From Patescibacteria group bacterium (GTDB lineage Bacteria; Patescibacteriota; Minisyncoccia; Phycocordibacterales; WO2-35-19), in the NCBI GenBank assembly GCA_038065655.1, contig JBBTQO010000009.1, forward strand, positions 218 through 64,217: a stretch of DNA of 64,000 nt, given 5' to 3'. Under the pieces are notes generated by a model. That model was given only the letters and a program-made list of their open reading frames with translations, had not been told where the DNA came from and did not search any database. Positions 6,097-21,698 of the stretch are shown piece after piece. Each line of letters opens with the position of its first letter. Positions within the stretch are counted from its first letter, which is position 1. A program made the position numbers and the translations under genes.

Positions 6097-6264
6097 AAAA
6101 AATCAAAAAGTCTTTGACTTTTAAAAAACCCTTATTTAGAGCCATATTTTATTTTTAATGACCTTGACTTATACACACTGTCCCCTCAGTTATCCCCAGT
6201 TTTGTTGAAAACTAAGGCCAACTACACCACAAAGACATTTTAACAAATTTTAGGACAAATTTAT

Positions 6265-6376
6265 ATAACTCACCCTACCCTCTCTTATTTCTTTAGAAAC
6301 ACGAAGTACAACAAGAGAGGGTTTTCGGAAAGTCCCTTCCCTTGTTGTAAGGGAAGGGATTTAGGGATGAGTTATT
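6265..6376. repeat. Family-A hairpin elements, two head-to-head copies (GTTGT-loop hairpin + GGG(A/T)GAGTTATT tail)
   Basis: 6334..6376 is cccttccc-ttgttgtaa-gggaaggg then atttagggatgagttatt. 6265..6325 is the reverse-orientation copy (ataactcaccc...ccctctctt...acaacaagagaggg) with an insertion in the loop. Confidence 0.6.
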
Positions 6377-6418
6377 GAATTTTGTATTATGAAATATTTA
6401 TGCTAAATTATTAGCATC

Positions 6419-6489
6419 GCGGCCATAGTTTAATGGTATGACACGTCCTTGCCAAGGATGAGATGGGAGTTCGATTCTCCCTGGCCGCA
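6419..6489 (+). tRNA. tRNA-Gly (anticodon GCC)
   Basis: Acceptor GCGGCCA/TGGCCGC, anticodon stem CGTCC/GGATG with loop TTGCCAA, T-arm GGGAG-TTCGATT-CTCCC, discriminator A. No CCA is encoded. Confidence 0.75.
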
Positions 6490-6528
6490 CAAAGAATTGT
6501 CTCTTTGTTTGTGTTATTATGATTTTAT

Positions 6529-6600
6529 GCGCCCGTGGTGAAACGGATATCATGAATGCCTTCGAAGCATTTGTTGGGGGTTCGAATCCCTCCGGGCGCG
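6529..6600 (+). tRNA. tRNA-Arg (anticodon TCG)
   Basis: Acceptor GCGCCCG/CGGGCGC, D-stem GTGA/TCAT, anticodon stem AATGC/GCATT with loop CTTCGAA, T-loop TTCGAAT, discriminator G. Confidence 0.7.
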
Positions 6601-6613
6601 CACCACACAGAAA

Positions 6614-8101
6614 ATGTCTAACAAAGCTAAAATAGAAAAATTTAAGATACCAGAAGAAGTTTCCCATGTAACTAAGGCGCTCAAGGATGCTAGTTTTGAG
6701 GCGTATTTGGTTGGTGGCTGTGTCAGGGATCTCTTTATGGGGAAAAAGCCTAAAGATTGGGATATTACAACCAATGCCATTCCAGAACAGATTATTCCCC
6801 TATTCCCTAAAACTTTTTACGAAAATGATTTTGGTACAGTTGGAGTTGTAAATGAAGAGGTTTCTGATGAAACTCTTAAGATTATAGAAATCACTCCATA
6901 CCGCATTGAAAGCTCATATTCTGACCATAGAAGGCCTGATAGTGTTCAATTCAGTAAAAACATACAGGATGATTTAAAAAGACGTGATTTTACTATAAAT
7001 GCTATTGCCTATGATGTTGAGACCGGAGAAATAATTGATCCTTTTGCTGGAGTGGCTGATTTGGCCAGAGGAATTATAAAAACGGTTGGAGAACCAAAAG
7101 AAAGGTTTTTTGAAGATGGCCTAAGAATATTGAGAGCTGTCCGGTTTCATGTGCAACTCGGCTTCCCTCTTGATTCAGAAACAGAAAAATCAATACTAGA
7201 AAATAGGGACATTTTGGGAGAAGTTTCTAAAGAAAGAGTTAAGGATGAATTTATGAGTATAATTATGTCCTTAAATCCCTCTAGTGGCCTTTTCCTATTA
7301 AGAAAATTAGGTTTGCTACATTATATTATTCCAGAACTTGAAGAATCGTTTGACGTAGAACAAAACCAGGCCCACTCCTATGATGTCTGGAATCACCTCC
7401 TTAAGACGGTCCAACATTCTGCTGACAAGGAATACCCGTTACATGTGAGACTTGCCGCTCTCCTTCATGATATAGCAAAGCCTAGAACTAGAAGATGGGA
7501 CAAAGAGGCAAATCAATGGACTTTTTATGGTCACGAGGTCGTGGGTTCACGTGTAACTAAAGATATACTTGAAAGATTAAAGTTCTCACGTGAAACAATT
7601 GAGAATGTAACTAACCTAGTTCGCTGGCATATGTTCTTCTCAGATACTGAGCAAATTACCCATTCTGCCGTTAGGCGTCTTATAGCCAATGTGGGCAAAG
7701 AAAATGTATGGGATTTGATAGATATGCGCATGTGTGATCGTATAGGTACTGGTAGACCTAAAGAAAGTCCCTACAGGCTTAGAAAATACAAGTCTATGAT
7801 AGAGGAGGTAATGAGAGACCCGGTTTCGGTTGGGATGCTTAAAATTGACGGTCGGAAAATAATTGAATTACTAAATATTGCTCCAGGTCCAAAAGTCGGG
7901 CAAATACTAAATGCCTTATTGGAAGAGGTTTTAGAAGATCCAACATTAAATAATGAGGAGTATTTAAATAAAAGGACAATAGAATTGTCAAATATGTCTG
8001 ATACAGAATTAAAGAGTTTAGGGGAAAGTGGTAAGAAAAAGAAGGAAAAAGAAGAAGAAAAAAAGATAAAAGAAATAAGGGGCAAACATTATGTTCAATA
8101 A
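6614..8101 (+). CDS. cca: CCA-adding tRNA nucleotidyltransferase with HD domain
   Basis: 495 aa. Head motif LVGGCVRDLFMGKKPKDWDITT is the classic GGxVRD...D.D signature. An HD domain follows (HSYDVWNHLLKT...LLHDIAKP). Lys/Glu-rich C-terminal tail. Starts 14 nt after the tRNA-Arg gene. Confidence 0.85.
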   Translation: MSNKAKIEKFKIPEEVSHVTKALKDASFEAYLVGGCVRDLFMGKKPKDWDITTNAIPEQIIPLFPKTFYENDFGTVGVVNEEVSDETLKIIEITPYRIESSYSDHRRPDSVQFSKNIQDDLKRRDFTINAIAYDVETGEIIDPFAGVADLARGIIKTVGEPKERFFEDGLRILRAVRFHVQLGFPLDSETEKSILENRDILGEVSKERVKDEFMSIIMSLNPSSGLFLLRKLGLLHYIIPELEESFDVEQNQAHSYDVWNHLLKTVQHSADKEYPLHVRLAALLHDIAKPRTRRWDKEANQWTFYGHEVVGSRVTKDILERLKFSRETIENVTNLVRWHMFFSDTEQITHSAVRRLIANVGKENVWDLIDMRMCDRIGTGRPKESPYRLRKYKSMIEEVMRDPVSVGMLKIDGRKIIELLNIAPGPKVGQILNALLEEVLEDPTLNNEEYLNKRTIELSNMSDTELKSLGESGKKKKEKEEEKKIKEIRGKHYVQ

Positions 8102-8312
8102 AGATAGAGTTATCCACTTTTTGTCCTTTACATTATTTTTAAAAGACATAAAATTTCTATCAGACAGCTAATATTTTTTAATCGAACATAATCATTAGCA
8201 TTTGTTCTTTATAATCCGATGCATCGGATTGAAAGAAAGTTTGGTTAGACATAAGAATAGGTTATATATATTCTCACTATTTTATTTTTAAAATGGAATA
8301 TCATACGATTTC

Positions 8313-8450
8313 TTATGAATGCGCTTTTTGACGAAACTTACCTTTCAAATACTCTTTTGTCCGCTTACAAGCCGCCTTGTCGTGTGAAATTCCTCCACCA
8401 CATCTTGGCGGTTTTGTTGTGTTTGGAAAATCAAAACTCTTCCTCGTCAT
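8313..8450 (-). CDS. possible small basic protein (45 aa)
   Basis: MTRKSFDFPNTTKPPRCGGGISHDKAACKRTKEYLKGKFRQKAHS. A TATTATAAAA -10-like box lies immediately upstream (leaderless-like). It sits next to the 8474..8525 repeat. No homolog recognised. Confidence 0.25.
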   Translation of the reverse strand: MTRKSFDFPNTTKPPRCGGGISHDKAACKRTKEYLKGKFRQKAHS

Positions 8451-8473
8451 AAGTTTTATAATACACACAAATT

Positions 8474-8525
8474 TTCTTGCTAGAAAATTTGCTCGTGTTC
8501 GCGCCGTCGCGCTCACAAGGCATTC
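8474..8525 (+). repeat. ~52-nt repeat, copy 1 (intergenic)
   Basis: ttcttgctagaaaatttgctcgtgttcgcgccgtcgcgctcacaaggcattc is about 80% identical to 28332..28383. Confidence 0.5.
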
Positions 8526-8554
8526 TAAAACTTACGACTTCAACGAGTTTTGGT

Positions 8555-9379
8555 TTACATTATTTCAATCAAAATAGGGCAGTGGTCTGAGCCTAAAACT
8601 TCCGGAAGTATTTTTGAATTTTTAATATTTGGTAAAAATTCTTTATTTACAAAAAAGTAGTCAATACGCCAACCAACGTTTCTCTCTCTAGCATTGGCCC
8701 AATGTGTCCACCAAGTATAATTGCCATTACCCTTAGTAAAATGGCGAAATGTATCAACAAATCCGGCTTTTATTATATTATCTATTCCTTTACGTTCCTC
8801 GTCTGTAAATCCATGTTCACCCTTGTTTTGCCTGGGGTTGGCCAAATCATCTGGAGTGTGGGCTACATTTAAATCACCACAGAAAATAACTGGTTTTGCT
8901 TGCCCTGAGTTTGTCGAATGGGTCAAATTTTTTATATATTCCAGAAAAGCTTTATCCCATTTTTGGTGACGAAGGGGGAGTCGACTTAAATCCTGTTTAG
9001 AGTTTGGCGTGTAAACATTAACAACAAAAAAATCCTTAAATTCAGCGGTTAAAACACGACCTTCTTTATTAGGATCGCCATAATTATCTTCTCCTAATTT
9101 ATATTTTTTGATAATTTCAGCAGGGAAGCCAAGAGTTATGTTTAGAACTTTCAAGTTGGCTAATTTTTTTACAAATATTGCTGTTCCGCTGTAACCAGCC
9201 TTTTCGGCGGAATTCCATATCTCTTCGTAGTCTTTTAAATCTATTTCATTTTGTTCTTTTTTAGACTTTATTTCTTGTAAACAAATAATATCTGGCTGAT
9301 ACTTCTCCACCATAGGCAAAAACAGTCCTTTCTTGTGAACTGCCCGCAATCCGTTTACGTTCCAAGATATGATTTTCAT
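8555..9379 (-). CDS. xth: exodeoxyribonuclease III / AP endonuclease (Xth family)
   Basis: 274 aa. MKIISWNVNGLRA...DIICLQEIK... and C-terminal ...LGSDHCPILIEI are the canonical ExoIII motifs. Confidence 0.9.
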   Translation of the reverse strand: MKIISWNVNGLRAVHKKGLFLPMVEKYQPDIICLQEIKSKKEQNEIDLKDYEEIWNSAEKAGYSGTAIFVKKLANLKVLNITLGFPAEIIKKYKLGEDNYGDPNKEGRVLTAEFKDFFVVNVYTPNSKQDLSRLPLRHQKWDKAFLEYIKNLTHSTNSGQAKPVIFCGDLNVAHTPDDLANPRQNKGEHGFTDEERKGIDNIIKAGFVDTFRHFTKGNGNYTWWTHWANARERNVGWRIDYFFVNKEFLPNIKNSKILPEVLGSDHCPILIEIM

Positions 9380-9421
9380 TGTCTTTTATTATGGAATTTT
9401 TTGTGGATATCGTGGAGGTGT

Positions 9422-9682
9422 TTATTTATAAACATCGTGATCCCCAACTGATAAAATAGCTGCGATTTTTTTAGAAACATACCGAAAAACGATACAAGTT
9501 TTGTAATTAACTGAAAAACTATATCTGCCAGTTAATTTACCATGCAATTTGTGCACTTTGAGTTGTTGATGATTTTTGCGATTTTTAAAAAGATTTATTT
9601 TATCCAAAACCTCTTCACCTAAAGCATATTCTAATTTTTTAAACTCTTTTATAAAATTGGGAGTATAAATTAACTCAATCAT
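9422..9682 (-). CDS. type II toxin, RelE/ParE family
   Basis: 86 aa. ...KLHGKLTGRYSFSVNYKTCIVFRYVSKKIAAILSVGDHDVYK fits the ParE/RelE C-terminal pattern. Immediately downstream of an RHH antitoxin gene. Confidence 0.75.
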   Translation of the reverse strand: MIELIYTPNFIKEFKKLEYALGEEVLDKINLFKNRKNHQQLKVHKLHGKLTGRYSFSVNYKTCIVFRYVSKKIAAILSVGDHDVYK

Positions 9683-9683
9683 T

Positions 9684-9944
9684 TTAATTCTTAAATTTTT
9701 TAAGGATTTTTCTTAGATCACCATAGAATATTTTGCCATCCAAAAGTTCTTGTTCGGCCCGAAGAACTGAGGCGACAGCTTCATCTTCCGCAAGTAAATC
9801 AATAGCTTTACGAACAACCTCAGCTTTGTTTGAGGCAAATTTTTGTTTGATCATGGAATTTATAAATTCTTCCTGGCTAGAGTTTATGGGTATTGATAGG
9901 GTGGTCATATTTGTATGATTATTTAATATGATAATATCATACAT
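9684..9944 (-). CDS. ParD/RHH-type antitoxin
   Basis: TTLSIPINSSQEEFINSMIKQKFASNKAEVVRKAIDLLAEDEAVASVL resembles ParD (ribbon-helix-helix). The true start may be the internal Met (MTTLSIP, at 9908). There is a 1-nt gap to the toxin gene. Confidence 0.7.
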   Translation of the reverse strand: MYDIIILNNHTNMTTLSIPINSSQEEFINSMIKQKFASNKAEVVRKAIDLLAEDEAVASVLRAEQELLDGKIFYGDLRKILKKFKN

Positions 9945-9967
9945 TAATCAATAAATTACGCAAGTGT

Positions 9968-10912
9968 TTAACCTCTTTTATTATGAAATTTTTTGTGGAT
10001 GTCGCGGAGGTGTTTGTCGGTGACATGGGTGTAGATTTGGGTGGTGCCTATGTTGGCGTGGCCGAGTAGAGCTTGCACAGAGCGCAGGTCGGCGCCATTT
10101 GAGAGTAAGTCGGTAGCAAAAAGATGGCGCATAGTGTGAGGCGTGACTTTTTTTGATATACCAGCTTTAATTGCATAATGTTTTACTATCCTCTCCACTG
10201 ATCTACGAGTAATGGCCAATCCTTTGCCGCGAGATTCTTGGGCCTTGCTGTTTTTTGATAGTTGAACAAAGAGTGCATCGTCCATATCTTTTCTCTTGGC
10301 TAAATATTCCTTCAAAACTTTTTTAGCATAGTCTGATATGAAAACCACTCGGAGCTTTCTGCCTTTGCCCATAATGGAAAGTTCGTCTGTAGTGAGGTCT
10401 ATATCGCGTGTTAGGGAACAAAGTTCAGAAACACGCAATCCGGTGGAAAAAAGTAATTCTAATATTGCCTTATCACGAAGTGCGTCAAGGCTATTATCTT
10501 TTGGGGCGTCTAACAATCTTTTTAATTCAGCGTTAGTGATGAGATCTAGAGATCTTTCAGGGGTTCTGGCCAGTTCAATCCTTTCCGAGGGCATAGACTT
10601 GATTTCTTGCCTAGCGAGATATTTTAGAAATGCCCTAATAGAGATTAAATAATAATTTTGGGTTTTTTTTGACATTGTTTCCCCTGTTTTTCTGTTGTTC
10701 CCTGTGACTTGGCGATTTAACCAAAGGCGGAATTCACGCACTACACTATCGGTAATGTCTTCAGGTTGTTTTGCTCCTGTTTGCTTTAAAAATACATCGA
10801 GATAATGCTGGTAATTCTCAACAGTTTTCAGAGCGCGACCCTTTTCAATCTCCACATATTCCAAAAATTGCCTTTTTAGTTGTTCTAGATCTTGTGCCAT
10901 ATATAACCCCAC
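9968..10912 (-). CDS. tyrosine recombinase XerC/XerD family
   Basis: 314 aa. C-terminal HTMRHLFATDLLSNGADLRSVQALLGHANIGTTQIYTHV carries the R..H..R..Y catalytic signature. Confidence 0.85.
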   Translation of the reverse strand: MGLYMAQDLEQLKRQFLEYVEIEKGRALKTVENYQHYLDVFLKQTGAKQPEDITDSVVREFRLWLNRQVTGNNRKTGETMSKKTQNYYLISIRAFLKYLARQEIKSMPSERIELARTPERSLDLITNAELKRLLDAPKDNSLDALRDKAILELLFSTGLRVSELCSLTRDIDLTTDELSIMGKGRKLRVVFISDYAKKVLKEYLAKRKDMDDALFVQLSKNSKAQESRGKGLAITRRSVERIVKHYAIKAGISKKVTPHTMRHLFATDLLSNGADLRSVQALLGHANIGTTQIYTHVTDKHLRDIHKKFHNKRG

Positions 10913-10939
10913 CCCTGACCCCTCCCCAAAGGGGAGGGG
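10904..10939 (+). repeat. Family-E C-rich leader + GC hairpin (TAACCCCACCCC...CCCCTCCCC-aaa-GGGGAGGGG)
   Basis: Read directly. Located in the xer upstream region. Confidence 0.5.
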
Positions 10940-11025
10940 AATAAGAAGTGAAAGTAAATTGTATCACTTTTTAACGTCGCACAATATTTTTTCAAAACAA
11001 AATTAAGGAGTGTTATAATTTAAAT

Positions 11026-11292
11026 ATGAAAACATTAGAACAATTTAAAAAAGAAGCATTCAGAAGGTCTGGGGTAAAAAGGGCTTATATTGAAATGCAA
11101 CCAGAAATCAAGATAATTCGGGCTCTTATTGTTTCGAGAAATGAAAAGGGGATGTCTCAGAGAAAATTGGCACAAAAAATAGGTATTACTCAATCAGCCC
11201 TTGCTCGTTTTGAGGCAGGTAGGATAAATCCAACTCTTTCTTTTCTTCAAAAAATAACAACAGGTCTTGGTTTGAGGTTATTGGTAAAATAA
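11026..11292 (+). CDS. XRE-family HTH regulator, HigA-like (orphan antitoxin-like)
   Basis: 88 aa. ...MSQRKLAQKIGITQSALARFEAGRINPTLSFLQKITTGLGLRL is a close paralog of the HigA-like protein at 22866..23195. No toxin partner is adjacent. Confidence 0.65.
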   Translation: MKTLEQFKKEAFRRSGVKRAYIEMQPEIKIIRALIVSRNEKGMSQRKLAQKIGITQSALARFEAGRINPTLSFLQKITTGLGLRLLVK

Positions 11293-11408
11293 TTCCTCTT
11301 CCTATTTCTTTATCTCTACCACTATTAGATACCCGTTTTAGGTGTTTGTAAACGAAAATTATCTGATGCTTTCAAGAAATCTATCAATTTCTTTAAATGA
11401 AGAAAGCG

Positions 11409-11861
11409 TCACAACACTTTGTTTTTGTATGGTTCTAGAAGTTCTGAATGAGACATTTTCCCTTTTTTATATCCGAGCTTATATCTTTTATAGAAAACAT
11501 GCTTCATAAGACTCAAAATCCCTGAGATAGTCTCTTCTTTTCTAAATAATCCCCTTTTTAAAATAGAAAACCATTGGGATAAAATATTTTTATAACGGAG
11601 GTAGATAATAACATCTGCAGATTTTAATCCTGGTTCTAGAAGCCAATATGTTGTCCCCTCAACTATCCACTTACCACTTAAATAATTTTCGGATATCAAT
11701 TTTAAAGCTTCCTGTCTATCACGCGATTTTGAAAACTTTACCTCATAAAAATAATCGTCTGTTGAATGGTGTTGTATATTCAGCTTTTCTGAAATTATTT
11801 TTGCTAAAGTTGATTTTCCTCTACCAGCATCGCCTGTGATTATTATTTTATTGTAGTTCAT
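11409..11861 (-). CDS. P-loop NTP kinase (adenylate-kinase / topology-modulation FlaR-like)
   Basis: 150 aa. Walker A GDAGRGKSTLAK near the N-terminus. Small-kinase architecture. Confidence 0.55.
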   Translation of the reverse strand: MNYNKIIITGDAGRGKSTLAKIISEKLNIQHHSTDDYFYEVKFSKSRDRQEALKLISENYLSGKWIVEGTTYWLLEPGLKSADVIIYLRYKNILSQWFSILKRGLFRKEETISGILSLMKHVFYKRYKLGYKKGKMSHSELLEPYKNKVL

Positions 11862-11902
11862 TATATCTTTATGAAATATTTAATTTTAGTATATCAAATA
11901 TT

Positions 11903-11937
11903 TTATTAAAAAAGACCGCTCATCGCTGAGCGGTCTT
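11903..11937 (-). terminator. intrinsic terminator of E4
   Basis: Perfect stem AAGACCGCTCA/TGAGCGGTCTT with loop TCGC, followed by a T-run on the minus strand. Confidence 0.6.
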
Positions 11938-11997
11938 GTGAACTCTGATCACCTCCTCTCAGGTGAGACCTTTTTGTGGCTGGTCAGGCCGTTTACT

Positions 11998-12318
11998 TTA
12001 CCCTACACTCGGAACACGTCCGAATTTTTCTTGCACCTCTGCAAATGTTTGGGGTAGAGTTTGTTTTTCGACGTCAAAATCTTCAATAATAATGACGCCT
12101 TGTTCTTCCAGAGGTTCAAACGAGCCCTCTGCACAGTCGCTCCCCTGTCTTTTGCGGGGGAGGGTTACTACGCAGTTAGCCGTCTTGAGAGAGCATAGAA
12201 GAAACGAACCTTCTCCGTCACATCGGATGCACTTTCCTTTTGGAATGTGCAGAGCGATGTAATCGTTGTGTCCCTGAAGAACATAACCGTGTTCGTTAGT
12301 AAATCGAAATGCGTTCAT
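11998..12318 (-). CDS. hypothetical Cys-containing small protein (GC-rich cassette E4)
   Basis: 107 aa, MNAFRFTNEHGYVLQGHNDYIALHIPKGKCIRCDGEGSF.... AAGGAG SD 7 nt upstream. TTGACT-N17-TGnTATAAT promoter at 12407..12436 (minus). Intrinsic terminator at 11903..11937. Confidence 0.5.
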   Translation of the reverse strand: MNAFRFTNEHGYVLQGHNDYIALHIPKGKCIRCDGEGSFLLCSLKTANCVVTLPRKRQGSDCAEGSFEPLEEQGVIIIEDFDVEKQTLPQTFAEVQEKFGRVPSVG

Positions 12319-12406
12319 GGTCAAACTCCTTATCCATACCTGCCTTTCGGTCAGGATTTTACTGGATTAAACTCAAAGAACTTTGGGCTTTTCAGCCTGC
12401 CCTTAT

Positions 12407-12436
12407 ATTATACACCCAATCAATATAAAAGTCAAG
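12407..12436 (-). promoter_or_regulatory. sigma70-like promoter (TTGACT-17-TATAAT with TG extension) for cassette E4
   Basis: Read directly on the minus strand: TTGACTtttatattgattgggTGTATAAT. Confidence 0.5.
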
Positions 12437-12483
12437 TAAAACGAAGGAAAATGGCTAAAAATAAAGTTTTTTGTGAAATAACG

Positions 12484-12545
12484 CCCATCACCTTCGCAAG
12501 GTGAGGGGCAACTTGCCGTGGGGCAAGTGGGGTGGGGTCGGAAGG
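12484..12545 (-). repeat. Family-C double-hairpin element (reverse orientation) in the rpsO leader
   Basis: Its reverse complement reads ccttccgaccccacccca-cttgccccacggcaag-ttgcccctcaccttgcgaaggtgatggg. Compare 56930..56990. Confidence 0.55.
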
Positions 12546-12639
12546 AAATTTGAAGATGGTCTTTTGGGGTAGGATATTCAAAGATCATCTTCGGGAAAGA
12601 GGATTTGCAAAAAAATGGGGTTTATGCTATCCTTTTGCC

Positions 12640-12912: not shown

Positions 12913-12928
12913 ATTAATTTTTAATAAA

Positions 12929-13462: not shown

Positions 13463-13501
13463 TTTTATTTTTGCTATAATTAATCTTCCATCATATAAAT
13501 T

Positions 13502-15253
13502 ATGCATGTAGAAGATTCACAAATAAGAGATTTCATTATTGATGCCGGGCTTATCTCCAAATCAGAAGCCGAAGAAGCGGAGAAAGAAGCCAAATCAAAA
13601 AAGAAACCATTGGGTGAAATCCTGATATCAAAAGGCAAGTTTTCTGATGATGATTTAAGGAGGGTGCAAGCTTACATACTTGGTATCCCGTTTATAAATT
13701 TAAAAGGTCAAATCTTAAATAGAGATATTTTAAATCTTATTCCTGAACCGATTGCCAGAAAGCACAACATTGTGGCTTTTGAAAAAAAGGACGACTCGCT
13801 CGAGGTGGCGATGCTCGATACCGATGACCTCCAGGCCCTGAACTCAATCAAGAAAAAAGTGGGTTTGAAAATATTACCCCGCCTCACTGACTCGGAGTCA
13901 ATGCGTGGTGCTCTTATTCAATATCAAAAAAATCTTAAAGATGAATTTGGCGATATCATCAAAACTGATTCCGATGAGATAAAAACTATTACTGAAAAAT
14001 TACCAAACGAAAGCTCTTCCTTGGGAGATTTGAAAAAACTAGCCGAAGAATTGCCAGTAGTTAGGATTGTCGATACATTGCTCAAACACGCTATCATCCA
14101 AAATGCTTCTGATATTCACATTGAACCGTTGGAAGACCAGATTTTAGTGCGTTATCGCATTGACGGTATCTTGCACGATGCCATGATTTTACCTAAACAT
14201 ATTGGCTACTCTTTGGTAGCTCGTATCAAAGTGCTTTCCAGTTTAAAGCTAGATGAAAAAAGATTACCACAAGACGGCCGATTTAAAATTGATATGAATG
14301 GCGAGAAGGTTTCTTTTCGTGTTTCTACTTTACCGGTTTATTATGGAGAAAAGACGGTGATGCGACTTTTGCGCGAGTCGGTTTCCGGTTTTACTCTTGA
14401 GTCTTTAGGTTTTCATGGTCAAGGTTTAGAGCTTTTACATAAATCATTGCAACATACAACGGGTATGATTTTAACCACCGGCCCGACTGGATCAGGTAAA
14501 TCAACCACTTTGTATACAATGTTAGATATTTTAAATACTGCTGACGTCAACATTTCTACCATTGAAGATCCGATTGAATATCAAATGAAAAGAATAAACC
14601 AGACTCAGGTAAAACCGGAAATTGGGCTAACTTTTGCATCAGGCCTCCGAACTTTGGTGCGTCAAGACCCAGATATTATTATGGTGGGTGAAATTCGTGA
14701 TAATGAGACAGCCTCTTTGGCTATCAATGCATCATTAACTGGCCACTTAGTGCTATCAACTTTGCACACCAACTCCGCGGCTGGAGCAGTGCCTCGTTTG
14801 ATTGATATGAAAGTTGAACCATTTCTTATTATTTCCACCATTGACGCCATCATTGGCCAAAGATTAGTCAGAAAACTTTCAGATAAGAAAGAAAAATATT
14901 ATCTTTCTAAATCAGAAGTAGAATCAATTTCAAAAGTGGTCAATCTTGATATAGTCATTCAGGTTTTACAAGATGAAAAAATAGTAGGCAAAAAAGATGA
15001 TTGGGAAAATATACCATTTTATAGACCATCAAAAGATGCTGGAGAAGATGCTTTCAAAAGTCGTATCGGCATCTATGAAGTGCTCAATGTCTCTACTGCC
15101 ATTAAAGATTTAATTATCAAAGGTGCTTCCACTGAAGATATGGAACTGCAGGCCAAAAAAGAGGGAATGCTCACTATGCTTGAAGACGGTATTTTCAAAG
15201 CCGCCCAAGGTTTAACCACCATTGAAGAAGTTTTGCGAGTAGTGTCGGAATAA
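13502..15253 (+). CDS. pilB: type IV pilus assembly ATPase PilB/GspE
   Basis: 583 aa. GspE N-terminal domain. Walker A ILTTGPTGSGKSTTLY. Conserved Asp/His boxes. Confidence 0.9.
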   Translation: MHVEDSQIRDFIIDAGLISKSEAEEAEKEAKSKKKPLGEILISKGKFSDDDLRRVQAYILGIPFINLKGQILNRDILNLIPEPIARKHNIVAFEKKDDSLEVAMLDTDDLQALNSIKKKVGLKILPRLTDSESMRGALIQYQKNLKDEFGDIIKTDSDEIKTITEKLPNESSSLGDLKKLAEELPVVRIVDTLLKHAIIQNASDIHIEPLEDQILVRYRIDGILHDAMILPKHIGYSLVARIKVLSSLKLDEKRLPQDGRFKIDMNGEKVSFRVSTLPVYYGEKTVMRLLRESVSGFTLESLGFHGQGLELLHKSLQHTTGMILTTGPTGSGKSTTLYTMLDILNTADVNISTIEDPIEYQMKRINQTQVKPEIGLTFASGLRTLVRQDPDIIMVGEIRDNETASLAINASLTGHLVLSTLHTNSAAGAVPRLIDMKVEPFLIISTIDAIIGQRLVRKLSDKKEKYYLSKSEVESISKVVNLDIVIQVLQDEKIVGKKDDWENIPFYRPSKDAGEDAFKSRIGIYEVLNVSTAIKDLIIKGASTEDMELQAKKEGMLTMLEDGIFKAAQGLTTIEEVLRVVSE

Positions 15254-15273
15254 ATAAACTCAGTAAGAAAAGA

Positions 15274-15318
15274 ATAACTCATCCCTAACCCTTCTCTTAC
15301 AACAAGAGAAGGGTTTCC
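15274..15318 (-). repeat. Family-A element (reverse orientation)
   Basis: ataactcatccctaacccttctcttacaacaagagaagggtt. Confidence 0.6.
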
Positions 15319-15348
15319 GTGCAACTAGTACAAATAAGGCATTAATTT

Positions 15349-15684
15349 ATGTATAACGACCAGAAACAAAAAGAAAGAAGAAGAGAGCTTCGCAAAAATC
15401 AAACCGAAGCAGAAAAGATTTTGTGGCAGAAAATTAGAAATAGACAAATTAACAATTTTAAATTTCATCGTCAATATAGTGCTGGACCATATATTCTCGA
15501 TTTTTTCTGTCCAGAGATTCGTTTGGTAATAGAATTGGACGGTGAACAACATAAAGATACCAAAGAGTATGACAAAGAAAGAGAATTATTTCTGAAAGAC
15601 AAAGATATTAACGTGATCAGATTTTGGAATAATGAAGTTTTGGAGAATATTGAGAATATTTTAAATATCATTAGAGCATGCTAG
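15349..15684 (+). CDS. DUF559 endonuclease-domain protein (Vsr-like fold)
   Basis: 111 aa. ...ILWQKIRNRQINNFKFHRQYSAGPYILDFFCPEIRLVIELDGEQH...VIRFWNNEV is the classic DUF559 pattern. Confidence 0.75.
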   Translation: MYNDQKQKERRRELRKNQTEAEKILWQKIRNRQINNFKFHRQYSAGPYILDFFCPEIRLVIELDGEQHKDTKEYDKERELFLKDKDINVIRFWNNEVLENIENILNIIRAC

Positions 15685-15693
15685 ATTTAAGAG

Positions 15694-16277
15694 GTGAAAA
15701 TTAATAAATTACAGATAAACAAAAAAGCTTGGGATAAAGTTGCAGAACAATTTTTTTCTCACAGTGCTTTGCCGATATGGGGACCTTTTAATATAGGGAA
15801 GAACACAGATTTAATTGGTTCAATCAAAGGTAAAACATTTTTAGATATAGGATTTGGAAGCGGGCATTCAATAAAATATTTGATTGAAAGAGGAGCAAAA
15901 AAGGTATATGGCGTTGATATTTCAAACGCACAATTTCAATTTGCCAGTAAGCTCAACAAAAAACATGTTGAAGCTGGGACCACTCCTTTTTTACTGATGT
16001 AGAGGATTTGAAGGATAAGTTGGAAGTAAAGTATTCATATCACGATGAACATGAGGTATTTTAAAAAGAATGGAAAGGGGGGGCTCCTGTTTATTTAACT
16101 TATCGCAAAACTTCTACATGGTTTAAATTACTTCGAGAAACCGGTTTTAATGTAGTGGATTATCTGGAGCCGGAACCGATTTTAAAGAAAGATTTGAGCA
16201 AGTCGTATTACACAATAAACAAAGCTCAAAAAGTTCCTTGCTCAATGATTTGGGTGTGTGAAAAATCTGAAAAATAA
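15694..16277 (+). pseudogene. class I SAM-dependent methyltransferase, disrupted by two frameshifts
   Basis: The N-terminal part (LDIGFGSGHS...GAKKVYGVDIS) stops at 16002. Reading continues in other frames through a T6 run (~15990) and a G7 run (~16075). The C-terminal part ...WKGGAPVYLTYRKTSTWFKLLRETGFNVVDYLEP... ends at 16277. Confidence 0.6.
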
Positions 16278-16310
16278 AAAACGGCAACAAACAATATATT
16301 TTTGTTCTTA

Positions 16311-16359
16311 CCCCTCTCTTGTTGTAAGAGAGGTCGAGACGAAGTCCGGGTGAGTTATT
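16311..16359 (+). repeat. Family-A element
   Basis: cccctctctt-gttgt-aagagagg...gggtgagttatt. Confidence 0.6.
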
Positions 16360-16442
16360 TTAAAGAAAAAGAAATTGAGGCTAGTTATTTATACCCAAAA
16401 TTTTTTTATTATTTTTTATTATTGCTATAATTAAGACAAGTT

Positions 16443-17657
16443 ATGCCATTTTATAAATACAAATATTTAAAAGAAGGGAAGGAGTATGAAGAAACAAAAG
16501 AGTTTGCTGACAAAGCAACTCTCTATGCGGCAGTGCGTTCAAACAACGGATCGATACTTTCAGCCGAGGGAGTAAAATCCAAGAAAATTCCTTTCAAATT
16601 TTTCTCTTTTAGAAAAAAAGTAAAACCTCAAGAGGTTATTACCTTTGCCAAAAATCTTTCGGTGATGATAGATGCCGGGCTCTCGGTTTCTAGGGCGTTG
16701 GCTGTTTTAAGCAAACAAACAAAAAATAAAAATTTGGTTGCAGTTTTTGAGAGTATAAACACTTCAGTAAATGCTGGTGAAACACTATCAAAATCTTTAG
16801 AAGCGCATTCAGAAATATTTTCCAGTTTGTTTGTCTCTATGGTTAGAGCCGGTGAGGAATCAGGTAAATTATCCTATTCTCTAAAAGTTATTGCTGATCA
16901 ACTTGAAAAATCTCATGCTATTTCTAAAAAAATAAAAGGAGCGATGATTTATCCTATTGTTATTGTTTGTGTGATGGTGGTTATCGGTATTGTTTTGATG
17001 GTTTATATGGTGCCAACCCTGACTGAAACTTTTAAAGGGCTTAATATTAAATTACCATTACCAACTAGAGTTATTATAGCAATCAGTGATTTTTTGATAG
17101 CTAATCTTCTTTTGACTGTGGGGACTCTTGTTGCTATTGGCATCAGTTTTGCTTATAGTCTTAAAACCCAAAGAGGCAAAAATACTTTAGATTTTATTAC
17201 CTTGCATATGCCAATGATTAAAAATATGTCTAAAGAAGTAAACGCCGCCAGGACGGCTAGAACTCTTTCTTCTCTCATTTCGTCTGGAGTAGATATTGTT
17301 TCTGCCGTTGGTATCACCAGTGCAGTATTGCAAAACCATTATTTCAAAGATTTGTTAGATGTGGCAGCTAAAAAAGTAGAAGTAGGTGAACTATTATCGG
17401 TCTCTCTTTCCAATGCAAACGGCAATCTTTACCCCGTTTTTGTGAGTGAAATGCTTAGTGTGGGCGAGGAAACCGGCAAAATAACCGAAATGCTCGACAA
17501 TATCGCTACCTATTATGAAAGCGAAACAGATCAAAAAACCAAGGACTTGTCGACTATTATTGAACCATTCCTTATGATTTTGATTGGTATTGTAGTTGGT
17601 ATCTTTGCGATCGCCATGATGCTCCCGACTTATTCTTTGGTTGACGCAATTCAGTAA
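16443..17657 (+). CDS. pilC: type IV pilus / T2SS platform protein PilC/GspF
   Basis: 404 aa polytopic membrane protein with two GspF repeats. Confidence 0.85.
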   Translation: MPFYKYKYLKEGKEYEETKEFADKATLYAAVRSNNGSILSAEGVKSKKIPFKFFSFRKKVKPQEVITFAKNLSVMIDAGLSVSRALAVLSKQTKNKNLVAVFESINTSVNAGETLSKSLEAHSEIFSSLFVSMVRAGEESGKLSYSLKVIADQLEKSHAISKKIKGAMIYPIVIVCVMVVIGIVLMVYMVPTLTETFKGLNIKLPLPTRVIIAISDFLIANLLLTVGTLVAIGISFAYSLKTQRGKNTLDFITLHMPMIKNMSKEVNAARTARTLSSLISSGVDIVSAVGITSAVLQNHYFKDLLDVAAKKVEVGELLSVSLSNANGNLYPVFVSEMLSVGEETGKITEMLDNIATYYESETDQKTKDLSTIIEPFLMILIGIVVGIFAIAMMLPTYSLVDAIQ

Positions 17658-17659
17658 TA

Positions 17660-17701
17660 TAACCTCACCCCCCAACCCCTCTCCTAGAAGCAGGAGAGGG
17701 G
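17660..17701 (+). repeat. Family-E element right after the pilC stop
   Basis: taacctcaccccccaa-cccctctcct-agaagc-aggagagggg. Confidence 0.5.
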
Positions 17702-17714
17702 AGAAAAAAGAAAA

Positions 17715-19538
17715 ATGGAAATTAATAACTGCAAATTAAAAAGAGCCTGCCCCGCGAAGCTTAAGCGAAGTGGGGGATTTTCTTTGATTGAAGCTATTTT
17801 TGCCGCAGCCATATTTGCCATTGTATCGGTAGCAATTTATCAAGGATTTATTTCTGTCACCTCACTTATATCTGCTTCGCGTGATAAAGTGGTGGCCATA
17901 AATTTAATAAATAGCGAATTTGAGCTTGTTAGAAATTTATCTTACGACGATGTAGGTCTACAAGGAGGTGTTCCTGCTGGAGTTTTAACAGGAACTTCAA
18001 CTACTTCTGTTGACGGTAGAGATTTTATAATAACTAGAACGATTAGAAATATTGACGACCCTTTTGACGGCACCATTGGCGGTTCACCAAATGATCTTTC
18101 GCCAGCTGACTATAAAATGGTACAAATAAACATATCTTGTAGCTCCTGCAAAAAGCCAATAGATTTTAGTACAATCTCAAATGTTTCTCCGAAAAATTTG
18201 GAAACCGCTTCAACCAACGGCGCTTTGTTTGTGAGAGTTTTTGATGCAAACGGTAATCCGGTACCACAAGCTAGTGTCCATGTTGAAAACTCAGCATTGG
18301 GTATAAATATTAATGAAACTACTAACAATGAAGGACTTTTGGCGATCGTAGATGCGCCACCCGCCTTAAATTCTTATAAAATTACTACAACCAAAAGTGG
18401 TTTTACTACTGATAAAACTTATGCGTCAACAGTTAGTAATCCCAATCCTATAAAACTTGATGCCTCTGTAATTTTGCAACAACTTACTCAAATTTCTTTT
18501 ATTATTGATCAGACCAGTGATATTTCAGTACATACGATCACAGACCGCTGCGTACCAGTTGCAAATGTCCCTTTTGAAATAAAAGGTACTAAGCTCATCG
18601 GTACTTCTCCAGATGTCTATAAATGGGTGGAAAATTTCACTACCGACTCAAACGGGTATAAGGATATTGCTGATGTCGAATGGGATGTTTTCACTTTTTT
18701 AGCAACTGGTGGATTTTATTTGGCCGGTACAAACCCAATATCTCCTATATCAATTTTGCCAAACTCAGAACAAAATATAGATTTGATAATAACCGATGAA
18801 ACTCCGGCGCTACTTTTGGTTAATGTTAAGGAATCTTCAACAAATCTCCCGGTATCTGATGCGACGGTCACTCTTTCGGGAGGTACTTATAACAAAACCC
18901 TAACAACAAATAAGGGATTTTTAATTCAATCTGATTGGCAAGGGGGAGCGGGTCAAGCAAATTTTAGTGATGAGACAAAATACTTTTCTTCAGACGGTAA
19001 TATTGACACTGATAGTCCGATAGGAGAGCTTAAACTTGCAAATTCATTAGGCAATTATGTTGCCTCGGGGGAGCTCACGTCATCAATATTTGATACAGGC
19101 ACTTCCTCAAATTGGAGCCGAGTTGATATTTCACCAACAGATCAACCTGTTGAGACAGGGGTGGGCTCGGTCAGGTTTCAAATAGCAACTGCCCTCGAAA
19201 ATACGGCGACAACTACCTGGGATTTTAAAGGCCCAGATGGAACTAGCGCAACTTTTTATACAATTACTGACAATAACATCAACTCAATTCACAACGGAGA
19301 TAGATACATTAGATACAAAATATATTTAAGAACTGCTGATTCTGATTTTACTCCAAATGTTTCTGATTTTGCCATTTCATTTTCTTCATCCTGTATTCCA
19401 CCAGGGCAGGCTCTATTTTCAAATTTAGAGATGGGCGTCTATACTTTAGATGTATCGGCAGCGGGTTTTTCTACTCAAACTGTACCAGTTAATATGAATT
19501 CAGATTGGCAAAGTCAAAATGTTTTATTATCACCATGA
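17715..19538 (+). CDS. large prepilin-type (pseudopilin/minor-pilin-like) protein
   Basis: 607 aa. Class III signal KRSGG|FSLIEAIFAAAIFAIV, the prepilin cleavage/methylation motif. Confidence 0.7.
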   Translation: MEINNCKLKRACPAKLKRSGGFSLIEAIFAAAIFAIVSVAIYQGFISVTSLISASRDKVVAINLINSEFELVRNLSYDDVGLQGGVPAGVLTGTSTTSVDGRDFIITRTIRNIDDPFDGTIGGSPNDLSPADYKMVQINISCSSCKKPIDFSTISNVSPKNLETASTNGALFVRVFDANGNPVPQASVHVENSALGININETTNNEGLLAIVDAPPALNSYKITTTKSGFTTDKTYASTVSNPNPIKLDASVILQQLTQISFIIDQTSDISVHTITDRCVPVANVPFEIKGTKLIGTSPDVYKWVENFTTDSNGYKDIADVEWDVFTFLATGGFYLAGTNPISPISILPNSEQNIDLIITDETPALLLVNVKESSTNLPVSDATVTLSGGTYNKTLTTNKGFLIQSDWQGGAGQANFSDETKYFSSDGNIDTDSPIGELKLANSLGNYVASGELTSSIFDTGTSSNWSRVDISPTDQPVETGVGSVRFQIATALENTATTTWDFKGPDGTSATFYTITDNNINSIHNGDRYIRYKIYLRTADSDFTPNVSDFAISFSSSCIPPGQALFSNLEMGVYTLDVSAAGFSTQTVPVNMNSDWQSQNVLLSP

Positions 19539-20143
19539 TCAATAATTTTAAAAAAGGATTCAGCTTGGTTGAAATAATCATTGTTATTGCTATAGCGACA
19601 GCGATATTTTTGGCAGTTTTTAATTTTGGTAATAGTATTTTTTCTTTTAATTCCAATGCTCAAAAAAACTTAAGTGCTCAAACAGACGCGAGGCGAGTGC
19701 TTAAAACCATAGTAAGGGAGCTTCGAAGTGCATCACCATCAAGCCTTGGTTCGTACCCGGTAGCACTCGCTAGCAGTACTGCTATTACTTTTTTTTCAAA
19801 TATAGATAGTGATTCATATAAGGAGCAAGTCAGGTATTTTATGCAAGGTAATGAATTAAAAAAAGGAGTAATAAAGCCTTCTGGCTCGCCACTAACTTAT
19901 AATCCGGCAAATGAAAAAATCACCCTATTAATTAGAGATATAAATAATGAAGGGGCAGCGGTTTTTGAGTATTTTGATTCAAGCTATGCTGGTACAAGTA
20001 CTCCACTCGTACAACCGGTACAAGCTACGAAGGTCAGACTAGTGAGAATAAATGTTTATATAGAAAAGGATCCAAATAAATCGCTTGGCCCAGTAATGGT
20101 AACAAGCCAAGTTTTTTTGCGTAATCTTAAAGATAATCTATGA
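19535..20143 (+). CDS. prepilin-type N-terminal domain protein (pseudopilin)
   Basis: MINNFKKG|FSLVEIIIVIAIATAIF. Its ATG overlaps the upstream stop (ATGA). Confidence 0.65.
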   Translation: MINNFKKGFSLVEIIIVIAIATAIFLAVFNFGNSIFSFNSNAQKNLSAQTDARRVLKTIVRELRSASPSSLGSYPVALASSTAITFFSNIDSDSYKEQVRYFMQGNELKKGVIKPSGSPLTYNPANEKITLLIRDINNEGAAVFEYFDSSYAGTSTPLVQPVQATKVRLVRINVYIEKDPNKSLGPVMVTSQVFLRNLKDNL

Positions 20144-21615
20144 AAATTAAAAATTTAAAATTAAAAATTACGAACAAAGGGAGTTTGTTGATTCCCATAA
20201 TTATATTTTCTTCGGTTGCGCTAGTTATTATCGGTGGCATTATGAAATGGGCTCAAATAACTATAGTAGCCAACAGACAACTTATAGTGAGGGAAAAAGC
20301 CATTCAAATAGCTGAATCTGGTATTGATTATTATCGTTGGCATTTAGCTCACAATCAAACAGACTATCAGGATGGTACTGGGGCCGCAGGGCCATATGTA
20401 CATCAGGTACTAGATAAAGATGGAAATATTGTAGGCGAATTTAGTCTTTCAATCACCCCGCCTGTTACCGGCTCAACCAAAGTGAGAATAGAGTCAACTG
20501 GTACTCCAGCAAGCTCAACCATTTCAAGAAAGATAAGGGTGGAAATGGCGATTCCATCACTTGCTAAATATGCGGTAGCGGCTAATGATGTGATGCGTTT
20601 TGGAGAGGGGACAGAAGTTTTTGGGCCAATACATTCAAACAAAGGTATTCGTTTTGATGGCCTGATTCACAATCTTATCACTAGCGCGCTTTCTTCTTAT
20701 GATGATCCGGATCATGATGAATGGGGTACTGATAAAGTTGAGTTTGCTGTTCATACTCACGTGAATGTGCCACCAAATGTTGGTGTCAACGATACTTTTA
20801 GAGCGGCTGAAGCTCCACCCATTAACCCTGTTCCAAATAGAACTGATGTTTTTGAGGTTGGTCGGCAGTTTCCGGTACCGGCAGTTGACTTTACCGGACT
20901 AACCAACAATCTGGCCAATATTAAATCAAGTGCCCAAACAAATGGCAGATATTTCGCCGCCTCGGGTTCACAAGGATATAGAATTGTTCTCAATACGGAT
21001 GATACTTTTACTATACGCAAAGTGACTTCACAGTATAACGACAATAATTGTAGTAATCCGGGTAATCAAACCGGCTGGGGTATCTGGAGTGTCCAAAACA
21101 CCTCTGCTGTCGGTACATACCCGATTCCGGCGAATGGTCTTATTTTTGTAGAAGATAATGTTTGGATAGAGGGGGCCATAAATAGCACCAGAGTGACCAT
21201 TGCTGCTGGGCGTTTTCCTGATAACCCTTCTACTCGACCACAGTTAACTATAAATAATGATTTAACTTACACCAATTATGACGGCACAGATGTGGTGGCC
21301 TTGATTTCTCAAGGTAATGTAAATGTGGGGTTAGTTTCAGATACTAATTTGAGGATTGACGCCGCACTAGTTTCTCAAAATGGTAGAGTGGGGAGGTATT
21401 ATTATGAGAGTGATTGTTCGCCATATAATATCAGAAGTTCCATCACGCTTTACGGTATGATTGCCACAAACATAAGGTATGGTTTTGCCTATACCAACGG
21501 CACCGGTTATCAAGACCGAAATATTATATATGATGCCAACCTCTTGTATGGTCCACCACCATCATTTCCATTAACCTCTGATAAATACGAAATTTTGTCG
21601 TGGGAGGAGATATAA
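20140..21615 (+). CDS. pilus-associated large protein (N-terminal hydrophobic anchor)
   Basis: 491 aa. ATGA overlap with the upstream pseudopilin gene. N-terminal TM segment IPIIIFSSVALVIIGGI. Same operon. Confidence 0.45.
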   Translation: MKIKNLKLKITNKGSLLIPIIIFSSVALVIIGGIMKWAQITIVANRQLIVREKAIQIAESGIDYYRWHLAHNQTDYQDGTGAAGPYVHQVLDKDGNIVGEFSLSITPPVTGSTKVRIESTGTPASSTISRKIRVEMAIPSLAKYAVAANDVMRFGEGTEVFGPIHSNKGIRFDGLIHNLITSALSSYDDPDHDEWGTDKVEFAVHTHVNVPPNVGVNDTFRAAEAPPINPVPNRTDVFEVGRQFPVPAVDFTGLTNNLANIKSSAQTNGRYFAASGSQGYRIVLNTDDTFTIRKVTSQYNDNNCSNPGNQTGWGIWSVQNTSAVGTYPIPANGLIFVEDNVWIEGAINSTRVTIAAGRFPDNPSTRPQLTINNDLTYTNYDGTDVVALISQGNVNVGLVSDTNLRIDAALVSQNGRVGRYYYESDCSPYNIRSSITLYGMIATNIRYGFAYTNGTGYQDRNIIYDANLLYGPPPSFPLTSDKYEILSWEEI

Positions 21616-21652
21616 CCCACCCCCCAACCCCTCCCTTAAATTAAGGGAGGGG
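21613..21652 (+). repeat. Family-E element starting with the stop codon
   Basis: TAAcccaccccccaa-cccctccctt-aaatt-aagggagggg. Confidence 0.5.
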
Positions 21653-21660
21653 GGTTCCGA

Positions 21661-21698
21661 GCCCTCTCTTGTTGTAAGAGAGGGTTGGGTGAGTTATT
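21661..21698 (+). repeat. Family-A element
   Basis: gccctctctt-gttgt-aagagaggg-ttgggtgagttatt, 8 nt before the tpiA ATG. Confidence 0.6.

Follow-up and report, generated by a model that had tools for sequence, protein, structure and literature searches.

The stretch of DNA analysed here (the window) comprises 64,000 nucleotides (nt) of contig JBBTQO010000009.1 from a Patescibacteria group bacterium, and carries a short repeated hairpin, termed family A, beside several of its genes. The flanking genes are UPF0102, tRNA-Gly, pilB, pilC and tpiA, with a DUF559 gene and a methyltransferase fragment between pilB and pilC. A sequence-only reading of the window had described five family A copies, each a stem of variable sequence with a fixed GTTGT loop and a fixed tail, lying beside tRNA-Gly, pilB, pilC and tpiA. 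All five copies were located and their neighbours are correctly named, and the counts lie beyond those of 100 shuffles: the tail motif GGGWGAGTTATT, with at most one mismatch, has seven matches in the window where 0.69 are expected, and the loop with its closing pairs, CTTGTTGTAAG, has six where 1.35 are expected, numbers reached in 0 of the 100 shuffles in either case. Two matches to the tail only, at 32033 and 49430, are without a hairpin, and no Rfam family matches any element at gathering thresholds or at E <= 1. Here, we focus on the tail, which mirrors the purine arm of the hairpin, a feature that the earlier reading missed, and on the placement of these elements at the boundaries of genes.

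The window was scanned together with 82 related loci (L001-L082), 657 kb in all. The loci were gathered by an exact-pattern scan, one genome per species, with the pattern CTTGTTGTAAG N6-36 GRTGAGTTAT, which gave 82 stretches. All matches lie in metagenome-assembled genomes of Patescibacteria (the candidate phyla radiation), labelled Candidatus Zambryskibacteria, Paceibacterota, "Patescibacteria group" or "uncultured Candidatus Saccharibacteria" bins, except for three stemless chance matches (L009, L022 and L032). A cyanobacterial origin, which the palindrome GCGATCGC and the AT-richness had brought to mind, was rejected on this result. Class II motifs were defined by the ITxF/Hoyne-Maher criterion, namely an antiparallel third strand whose G·G-C, A·A-T or T·A-T triplets span 6-15 positions, one mismatch being allowed, and were sought with a purpose-written finder. 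As a positive control, the finder recovered both E. coli BoxC copies between hrpB and mrcB; loops of more than 8 nt are not detected, hence copy 1 of family A was missed by it.

Copy 1 (6264-6321, minus strand) consists of a pyrimidine (Y) arm at 6313-6321, a 26-nt loop at 6287-6312 made of GTTGT and a 21-nt insert, a purine (R) arm at 6278-6286 (AAGAGAGGG), the linker TA at 6276-6277 and the third strand GGGTGAGTT at 6267-6275, followed by ATA. Tails outward, it is paired as the left half with copy 2 (6333-6376, core 6333-6373, plus strand), which reads TCCCTTCCCTT gttgt AAGGGAAGGGA ttt AGGGATGAGTT ATT and whose tail ends 42 nt upstream of tRNA-Gly (6419). The centre of the pair, at 6322-6332 (TTTTCGGAAAG), has a TTYCGRAA-like form that is seen again between paired elements of other genomes. 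Copy 3 (15273-15313, core 15276-15313, minus strand) reads CCCTTCTCTT gttgt AAGAGAAGGG tta GGGATGAGTT ATT; its triplex core starts at 15276, 22 nt past the pilB stop codon (15251-15253), and its Y side lies 35 nt upstream of the ATG of the DUF559 gene (15349). Copy 4 (16313-16359, core 16313-16356, plus strand), with CCTCTCTT gttgt AAGAGAGG, a linker that is itself the 15-nt mini-hairpin TCGAGACGAAGTCCG, and GGTGAGTT ATT, lies 86 nt upstream of pilC (16443). Copies 3 and 4 are inverted with tails outward and flank the DUF559 (Vsr-like endonuclease) gene at 15349-15684 and a truncated methyltransferase open reading frame (ORF) at 15694-16002; the DUF559 gene adjoining the pilB-side element is kept in L001, L003, L023 and L045. 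Copy 5 (21662-21698, core 21662-21695, plus strand) is composed of CCCTCTCTT at 21662-21670, the loop gttgt, AAGAGAGGG at 21676-21684, the linker tt and GGGTGAGTT at 21687-21695, then ATT, and reads as one string CCCTCTCTTGTTGTAAGAGAGGGTTGGGTGAGTT.

Besides the five family A copies, the window holds four elements of sister families, all on the minus strand. The first (10907-10939; CCCCTCCCC ttt GGGGAGGGG tca GGGGTGGGG, then TTATAT) precedes the ATG at 10900 of a gene that extends to 9968. The second (17662-17701; CCCCTCTCCT gcttct AGGAGAGGGG ttgg GGGGTGAGGT) has its tail 4 nt past the pilC stop codon, and its R arm is followed by a 13-nt A-rich spacer and an ATG at 17715. A third, at 21614-21652 (CCCCTCCCTT aattt AAGGGAGGGG ttgg GGGGTGGGTT), has a tail TTA complementary to the TAA stop codon (21613-21615) of the gene at 20140-21615, whose orthologue in L023 terminates at the same residues; it forms a second tails-outward pair with copy 5 around the centre GGTTCCGAG at 21653-21661. 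The last (62010-62044; CCCCCTCTT aatat AAGAGGGGG ctg GGGGGCGTT) lies in frame inside the ORF at 60747-62186. When folded as single-stranded DNA (ssDNA) with ViennaRNA, the stems have energies of -8 to -12 kcal/mol and only the hairpin forms, leaving the tail unpaired.

Read 5′ to 3′, the unit follows the order pyrimidine arm, loop, purine arm, a linker of 2-4 nt, a strand of G, T and A, and TTAT. The 5′ part of the tail is a mirror of the purine (3′) arm, in which G answers to G and A to either A or T, as in AAGAGAGGG/GGGTGAGTT and AAGAGAAGGG/GGGATGAGTT. Across the aligned family A copies (n=97) the tail is variable, with arm and tail pairs such as AAGAGAGGGG/GGGGTGAGTT, AAGAGAAGGG/GGGATGAGTT and AAGAGAGGAGG/GGAGGTGAGTT; the length of the G run and the position of T or A in the tail co-vary with the stem, and stem changes are matched across all three strands (C-G·G to T-A·A). 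The earlier description of the tail as fixed must therefore be abandoned. Its observation that the stems differ yet pair perfectly is borne out, and the compensatory changes recur at orthologous sites in other species, while the fixed loop is a property of the window, since relatives also have GTAGT, AATGT, AAAGT or GTTAT in place of GTTGT. The mirror rule extends to hairpins of unrelated sequence in the window and loci, including the sister elements GGGGAGGGG/GGGGTGGGG, AGGAGAGGGG/GGGGTGAGGT and AAGGGAGGGG/GGGGTGGGTT and the further pairs AAGAGGAGG/GGAGGAGTT, AAGGGGAAGG/GGATGGGGTT and AAAGAAGGGG/GGGGAAGATT. Triplet compatibility of the copies in the window is 8/8, 9/9, 10/10 and, for copy 2, 10/11; copy 1 scores 9/9 by inspection.

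The strength of this pattern is seen in its controls. The 657 kb contain 170 class II motifs, against 0, 0 and 2 in block shuffles and 10 in reversed sequence. When GC-rich perfect Y-loop-R hairpins were picked blind to their flanks (n=120), 68% were accompanied, no more than 6 nt from the purine arm, by a mirror strand of full (100%) compatibility, which always lay on the 3′ side of the R arm and on one DNA strand only (0% on the other). The share was 5% if the comparison was direct instead of mirrored, and 14% if flanks were swapped between hairpins with different arms; the R-loop-Y order was represented by only two hairpins. There are 66 distinct arm and third-strand combinations, about 40 of them perfect. 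A mirror repeat cannot be templated by a polymerase. Selection on a three-stranded, or equivalently parallel-stranded, interaction is the only explanation that we see for the mirror pattern. Watson-Crick pairing of the tail with the 5′ arm was considered and rejected, since only homopolymer G/C runs could pair and the linker bases lend no support, as was a G-quadruplex, for which each strand offers just two G runs. The sequence-only reading had also linked a bidirectional terminator at 37354-37390 to the family through its TGTTGT loop; this link does not hold, as the hairpin at 37354-37381 (GGACGATCGCC/GGCGATCGTCC) is not homopyrimidine/homopurine, is without a mirror tail and is built on the palindrome GCGATCGC.

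Insertions in these units preserve the fold. Against the 1-6 nt that ITxF sets for each loop, copies 2, 3 and 5 have a loop of 5 nt and a linker of 2-3 nt, copy 1 has a 26-nt loop and copy 4 a 15-nt linker, and about 13 of the 16 linkers of at least 10 nt self-fold into closed mini-hairpins (for example TCGCTCCGCAAAGCGGAGCG, CCACACGAAGTGGA and TCGAGACGAAGTCCG); linker insertions are tolerated only where the arm and the third strand stay adjacent. Self-folding inserts in the linker or loop were noted at 16334-16348 and 6287-6312 in the window and in L023, L055, L068, L078, L004, L010, L057 and L066, among them the ACGAAGT type (GAC-GAA-GTC, CAC-GAA-GTG) and GCTCCGC-AAA-GCGGAGC. The CGAAG core resembles d(GCGAAGC), a DNA mini-hairpin of very high stability. 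Conservation of the loop and the terminal TGAGTTAT extends over more than 20 species.

Units also stand as inverted pairs, in which a 3-G AGAGGG type is joined to a GGAAGGG or AGAAGGGGG type, as in copies 1 and 2 and in the pair 21614/21662 of the window; the pair ends are symmetric (ATAACTCAC...GTGAGTTAT) and the centre is conserved. A conserved tails-inward arrangement was observed in five genomes (L004 at 2790-2877, L039, L041, L063 and L075), where a family A copy faces a AAGGGGGA/AGGGGGTT copy at a distance of 9-13 nt and neither tail touches a gene. In L008, at 5854-5905, both DNA strands carry a mirror strand of the hairpin CCCTCCCCTT/AAGGGGAGGG; the first is located at a stop codon and the second 8 nt ahead of a start codon, so that a single unit occupies the entire spacer.

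The closest known counterpart of this architecture is BoxC, a classical intergenic repeat family of E. coli, to which Hoyne and Maher (2000) gave the name PIT (potential intrastrand triplex) elements and Holder et al. (2015) the name TM-ECO (PMC4666352). A TM-ECO example reads CCCTCTCCC TTGA GGGAGAGGG TTA GGGTGAGGG; as a single strand TM-ECO forms a stable triplex in vitro by circular dichroism and nuclear magnetic resonance, while dimethyl sulfate footprinting gave no stable triplex in vivo (PMC4666352). TM-ECO is strictly intergenic, has no preferred distance to ORFs, is linked to genomic variability and always combines two subtypes in its inverted pairs (PMC4666352). Family A shares with BoxC/PIT/TM-ECO the class II order, a short second loop that is often TTA, and the G·G-C, A·A-T and T·A-T logic, and with TM-ECO the GGGAGAG/GGGTGAG core; BoxC and the present elements are alike multi-copy and dispersed, occur solo or as two-subtype inverted pairs, and vary in presence between relatives. 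The elements differ from BoxC in having A-T based inner triplets (CTT/AAG/TT) and TTAT as the end of the unit, and the strict TM-ECO consensus CCCTCNCCC N3-6 GGGNGAGGG N3 GGGNGAGGG has 0 matches in the window and the 82 loci, whereas the E. coli control locus matches. Many co-varying sequence families are found here, in contrast to the one near-invariant sequence of BoxC; pairs are mostly tails-outward, unlike the tails-inward hrpB-mrcB pair; density is about 9 per 64 kb, compared with 23 per 4.6 Mb in E. coli; and the units sit precisely at stop codons and -10 boxes and also inside ORFs, unlike BoxC, which lies between genes in every case and keeps no preferred distance to ORFs. The host of the one is a patescibacterium and that of the other a proteobacterium. 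From these comparisons of sequence, the elements are probably the candidate phyla radiation counterpart of the BoxC/PIT/TM-ECO class II purine-motif intrastrand triplex repeats, with family A as one family of a larger set.

Resemblances to other repeats are less complete. Palindromic elements of Rickettsia are reportedly about 100-150 bp long and occur both between genes and, translated in frame, within genes (Ogata et al. 2000). They are similar to the present elements in being short palindromic repeats of a reduced genome with intergenic and in-frame translated copies; they differ in having no reported triplex or mirror strand and a probably unrelated sequence, and the units described here are shorter, at 33-45 bp, with pairs of about 90-115 bp. 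Repetitive extragenic palindromic (REP) sequences and their BIME and REPIN arrangements, which go with RAYT transposases, are likewise short extragenic palindromes in many copies, solo or as inverted doublets, often after stop codons or between cistrons; here, unlike in REP/REPIN, there is no GTAG-type 5′ tetranucleotide (by eye), there is a third, mirror strand, and copies lie inside ORFs. Correia elements of Neisseria are promoter-carrying MITEs (miniature inverted-repeat transposable elements) with defined terminal inverted repeats, a TA duplication and no triplex design. The likeness to Correia elements is that of a small repeat whose end can make a -35/-10 promoter and that also occurs in operons, with the promoter deduced here from geometry only.

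Placement with respect to genes is precise. Where the tail-side neighbour lies on the opposite strand, its stop codon is complementary to the tail TTA in 19/48 cases and falls within -2 to +6 nt in 31/48. Without restriction to intergenic copies, 24 stop codons overlap elements, all of them at the tail TTA. Since the TAA of the loop and the TGA of the third strand serve no gene as its end (0 cases), random insertion into the 3′ ends of coding sequence is not supported as a cause of this overlap. For neighbours on the element's own strand, the distance from the triplex to the start codon is exactly 11 nt in 12/65 and between 5 and 13 nt in 23/65. The peaks at the stop codon and 11 nt before the start are sharp. 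In a further, intercistronic setting the purine arm is followed by an A/G-rich spacer of 11-22 nt, often with AGGA or AGGAG, and the ATG of the next co-directional gene, as at 17662-17701.

The start-proximal copies have the geometry of promoters. Family A copies with a start 10-12 nt past the triplex form a subtype of their own, with a spacer of 17 nt between TTGTAA and TAT in 11/14 and the hexamer TAnnnT in 13/14; in copies whose tail is placed at a stop codon the spacer measures 18-28 nt, never 17, and the hexamer is present in 5/14. Upstream of the 603 starts called in the window and loci by crude gene calling, Shine-Dalgarno motifs are almost absent, and TAnnnT is most frequent 6 nt (in 111 genes) and 7 nt (in 59) upstream of the start, 170 of the 603 in total, with T at -15 in 67% and G at -14 in 62%. 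A -10 signal so close to the start characterises leaderless mRNAs made from extended -10 promoters, and suggests that such promoters are widespread in this lineage of the candidate phyla radiation. The family A tail GAGTTAT provides G-14, T-12, A-11 and T-10. At tpiA, copy 5 matches a sigma-70-type criterion (a -35-like hexamer, a spacer of 17 +/- 1 nt and TAnnnT ending 6-7 nt before the start), with TTGTAA at 21672-21677, a 17-nt spacer, TATTAT at 21695-21700, 6 nt and the ATG at 21707; from this geometry alone we infer that the loop TTGTAA and the tail TAT are the -35 and -10 of a putative promoter (21672-21709, plus strand) of a leaderless tpiA. In L006 and L007, tpiA has TGnTATAAT-N6-ATG at the same place, without the element. 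A promoter scan was uninformative, promoter-like sites in this AT-rich DNA being no commoner than in shuffles. A role of the family A tail as a Shine-Dalgarno site was rejected, as at least 14 nt from the ATG is too far and such motifs are almost unused in these genomes; such a role is possible in those other families in which 5-8 nt separate the G-rich strand from the ATG after it.

The elements are gained and lost between species, as seen at syntenic loci that share 66-79% identity with the window. In four to six species, elements of different arm and third-strand types occupy the sites downstream of pilB and upstream of pilC: the site of copy 3 in L023, L003, L001, L045 and L021, and the pilC site in L007, L021 and L023, while the linker insert of copy 4 is also present in L068. 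The L051 orthologue of the gene downstream of 10907-10939 has a different element at the same place, and the element that follows pilC and the tpiA-upstream pair are absent from L023, L006 and L007, with the 17662-17701 site empty in L023 and L007. At one spacer shared by L055 (1602-1700) and L061 (1131-1216), a tails-outward pair has the subtypes facing the stop and start codons swapped, which looks like an inversion or replacement of the pair. Within the window's own population, an exact-protein look-up of TpiA, which assigns the window to the Hainich groundwater contig ENA ERZ1292632, gave no polymorphism before tpiA in three samples, all of which have the 91-nt spacer. No target-site duplication could be defined at 66-79% identity, where boundaries are ambiguous; a TA duplication is compatible with the pair ends, and solo copies are without a conserved Y-side end.

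Insertion has also reached coding sequence. Compared with its counterpart in L038, the MBL/beta-CASP (RNase J-like) protein of the window gains 19 residues through the element at 62010-62044 (EFVEKV-NENNAPQPPLILRGGEEKKGLKR-VFVIMGEPK, as opposed to EFVEKV-APS-KVFVIMGEPK). Many elements lie in frame inside long ORFs and are translated in the reading frame, at least 18 of them supported by an insert-free orthologue. Family A gives the peptide ITHPNPSLTTREG in L042, L082 and L015; the in-frame copies also give NSPxTPLLQQERG, PSLVVREGxGEL and NNAPQPPLILRGG. The class II architecture, the selection for triplet compatibility, the gain, loss, flipping and in-frame insertion of units, and their precise placement at gene boundaries are thus matters of observation.

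As triplex repeats, the elements would work as follows. A single DNA strand would fold into the hairpin, and the third strand would lie antiparallel to the purine arm in the major groove through G·G-C, A·A-T and T·A-T triplets. The structure would act in DNA, and transiently, while the G-rich strand is single-stranded during replication, transcription or copying of the element, and the surviving copies would be those fitted to gene ends. In one orientation, the tail TTA would supply or abut the stop codon of the preceding gene, and the element would become an intercistronic or 3′-flanking hairpin, either tolerated or useful; in the other, the subtype with a 9-bp stem and a 2-nt linker would offer its loop TTGTAA as -35 and its tail TAT as -10, with transcription from the ATG of a leaderless gene. 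Several points weigh against this proposal. BoxC in E. coli was found to be without a stable triplex in vivo and without promoter or terminator activity (PMC4666352), and the inner three triplets here, being A-T based, are expected to be weaker than those of TM-ECO. A triplex alone leaves the GTTGT loop and the constant TGAGTTAT unexplained, and these suggest some further constraint on the sequence itself, from a promoter or a protein for example; a -35 role would account for their conservation only in the promoter copies, and a recognising protein, as in the protein-binding hairpin of the sequence-only reading, is possible. Mobility is deduced solely from gain and loss between species, and neither a transposase (for which no systematic search was made) nor a target-site duplication nor strain-level polymorphism was found. 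Gene calls come from a crude ORF caller, and the loci were picked by the family A pattern, so counts do not equal genome-wide frequencies.

Could the units act in RNA instead, as intercistronic or 3′-flanking stem-loops that terminate, attenuate, process or stabilise transcripts, with the tail as a fixed signal? The hairpins are stable, many copies start at the stop codon of the upstream gene, and many lie between co-directional genes with the next ATG 11-22 nt further on. REP hairpins at intercistronic positions are known to stabilise upstream mRNA in E. coli. We nevertheless consider an RNA-level role rather unlikely. The attenuator that the sequence-only reading had offered, or a terminator, is not supported: no U tract follows the hairpin in either direction, the flanks being A-rich or G-rich, a terminator scan calls none, and copies inside operons cannot be efficient terminators. 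Measured against co-directional genes on their flanks, the orientation of the elements is unbiased, at 40 versus 42, which argues against a function tied to one RNA strand, and copies also lie within ORFs. The stop-overlapping copies would be transcribed as the C-rich complement, in which just 7/10 positions are canonical pyrimidine-motif triplets, and the mirroring of arm and tail is left unexplained. RNA is reported not to adopt the purine motif (PMC4666352), and the lack of orientation bias favours DNA over RNA as the site of action. An origin in composition, by which GC-rich terminator-like hairpins of an AT-rich genome happen to stand beside G-rich ribosome-binding-like sequence, can draw on third strands such as GGGAGGTT and GGAGGAGTT, which are Shine-Dalgarno-like and lie 5-8 nt before an ATG; it is hardly credible given the shuffle and reversed-sequence controls, the near-absence of Shine-Dalgarno usage, the distance of the family A tail from the ATG, and an arm-specific matching of 68% as opposed to 14% with swapped flanks.

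A stronger contender, to which we give somewhat less than even chances, is a selfish repeat of REP or MITE type moved by a protein (HUH/Y1 RAYT-like or another nuclease), in which triplet compatibility is part of an ssDNA substrate or incidental, and boundary positions reflect target preference and purifying selection rather than function. REP-like was the nearest of the three options in the sequence-only reading, since these are dispersed structured repeats and BoxC is a classical intergenic family, even though the third strand was missed. Between-species gain and loss, inverted pairs with symmetric ends and a conserved centre, the pair flipped between L055 and L061, and in-frame insertions like those of the Rickettsia palindromic elements all fit such a repeat, as do the conservation of the loop and terminal TGAGTTAT across more than 20 species and stop overlap at the tail end only, which is consistent with a TA or TTA target. 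On the other side stand the missing transposase and target-site duplication, the solo copies without a conserved Y-side end and the same spacer in three samples of one population; in addition, the 17-nt spacer subtype at leaderless starts requires functional selection beyond target preference. A selfish repeat overlaps with the triplex-repeat interpretation and does not exclude it.

The window also holds hairpins of other kinds. One family (GAAGATGACCTTT, a 15-nt loop, AAAGGTCATCTTC) is found at 22490-22530, 39948-39978 and 56884-56924, and is not homopurine/homopyrimidine. Long-stem hairpins of 17-20 bp, with ends CCTT/AAGG and loops of 14-17 nt, lie at 28074-28121, 30910-30966 and 51297-51351, and a third family, with TACACAGATT, a 16-24-nt loop containing GACGGTCGTCG-like sequence, and AATCTGTGTA, lies at 22584-22621, 36628-36669 and 37260-37299. 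The arms of the hairpin at 56966-56988 (CCCTCACCTT gcg AAGGTGAGGG) resemble a third strand and its complement, in a region 86% identical to L074 664-735. A tmRNA gene occupies 46316-46741 on the minus strand (Rfam, 66 bits), and a Gp49/HTH toxin-antitoxin-like gene pair at 22616-23195 directly follows tpiA (from Pfam marks on the identical contig).

Since the 1990s it has been asked whether BoxC and other intrastrand DNA triplexes form in cells and matter there. The E. coli element offers no covariation test because it is almost invariant, and experiments on it revealed no function, whereas this lineage supplies diverged families that change on three strands together, linker insertions under which the fold is kept, and an exact position with respect to stop codons and promoters, so that both the structure and a role in gene expression become directly testable. 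Literature searches returned no relevant report of triplexes, palindromic elements or leaderless genes for genomes of the candidate phyla radiation or Patescibacteria. A bolder and less likely reading is that the elements are a patescibacterial mobile or gene-boundary module that depends for its activity on a transient ssDNA triplex, exapted as leaderless promoters, as punctuation of stop codons and 3′ ends and as translated insertions. In that case the base-triple covariation, with its 40 or so arm variants and the concerted changes observed at orthologous sites, would for the first time give comparative evidence of an intramolecular DNA triplex selected in vivo. The annotation of candidate phyla radiation genomes is concerned as well: gene spacers consist largely of these units, many genes seem to be leaderless, and some proteins carry repeat-derived peptides.

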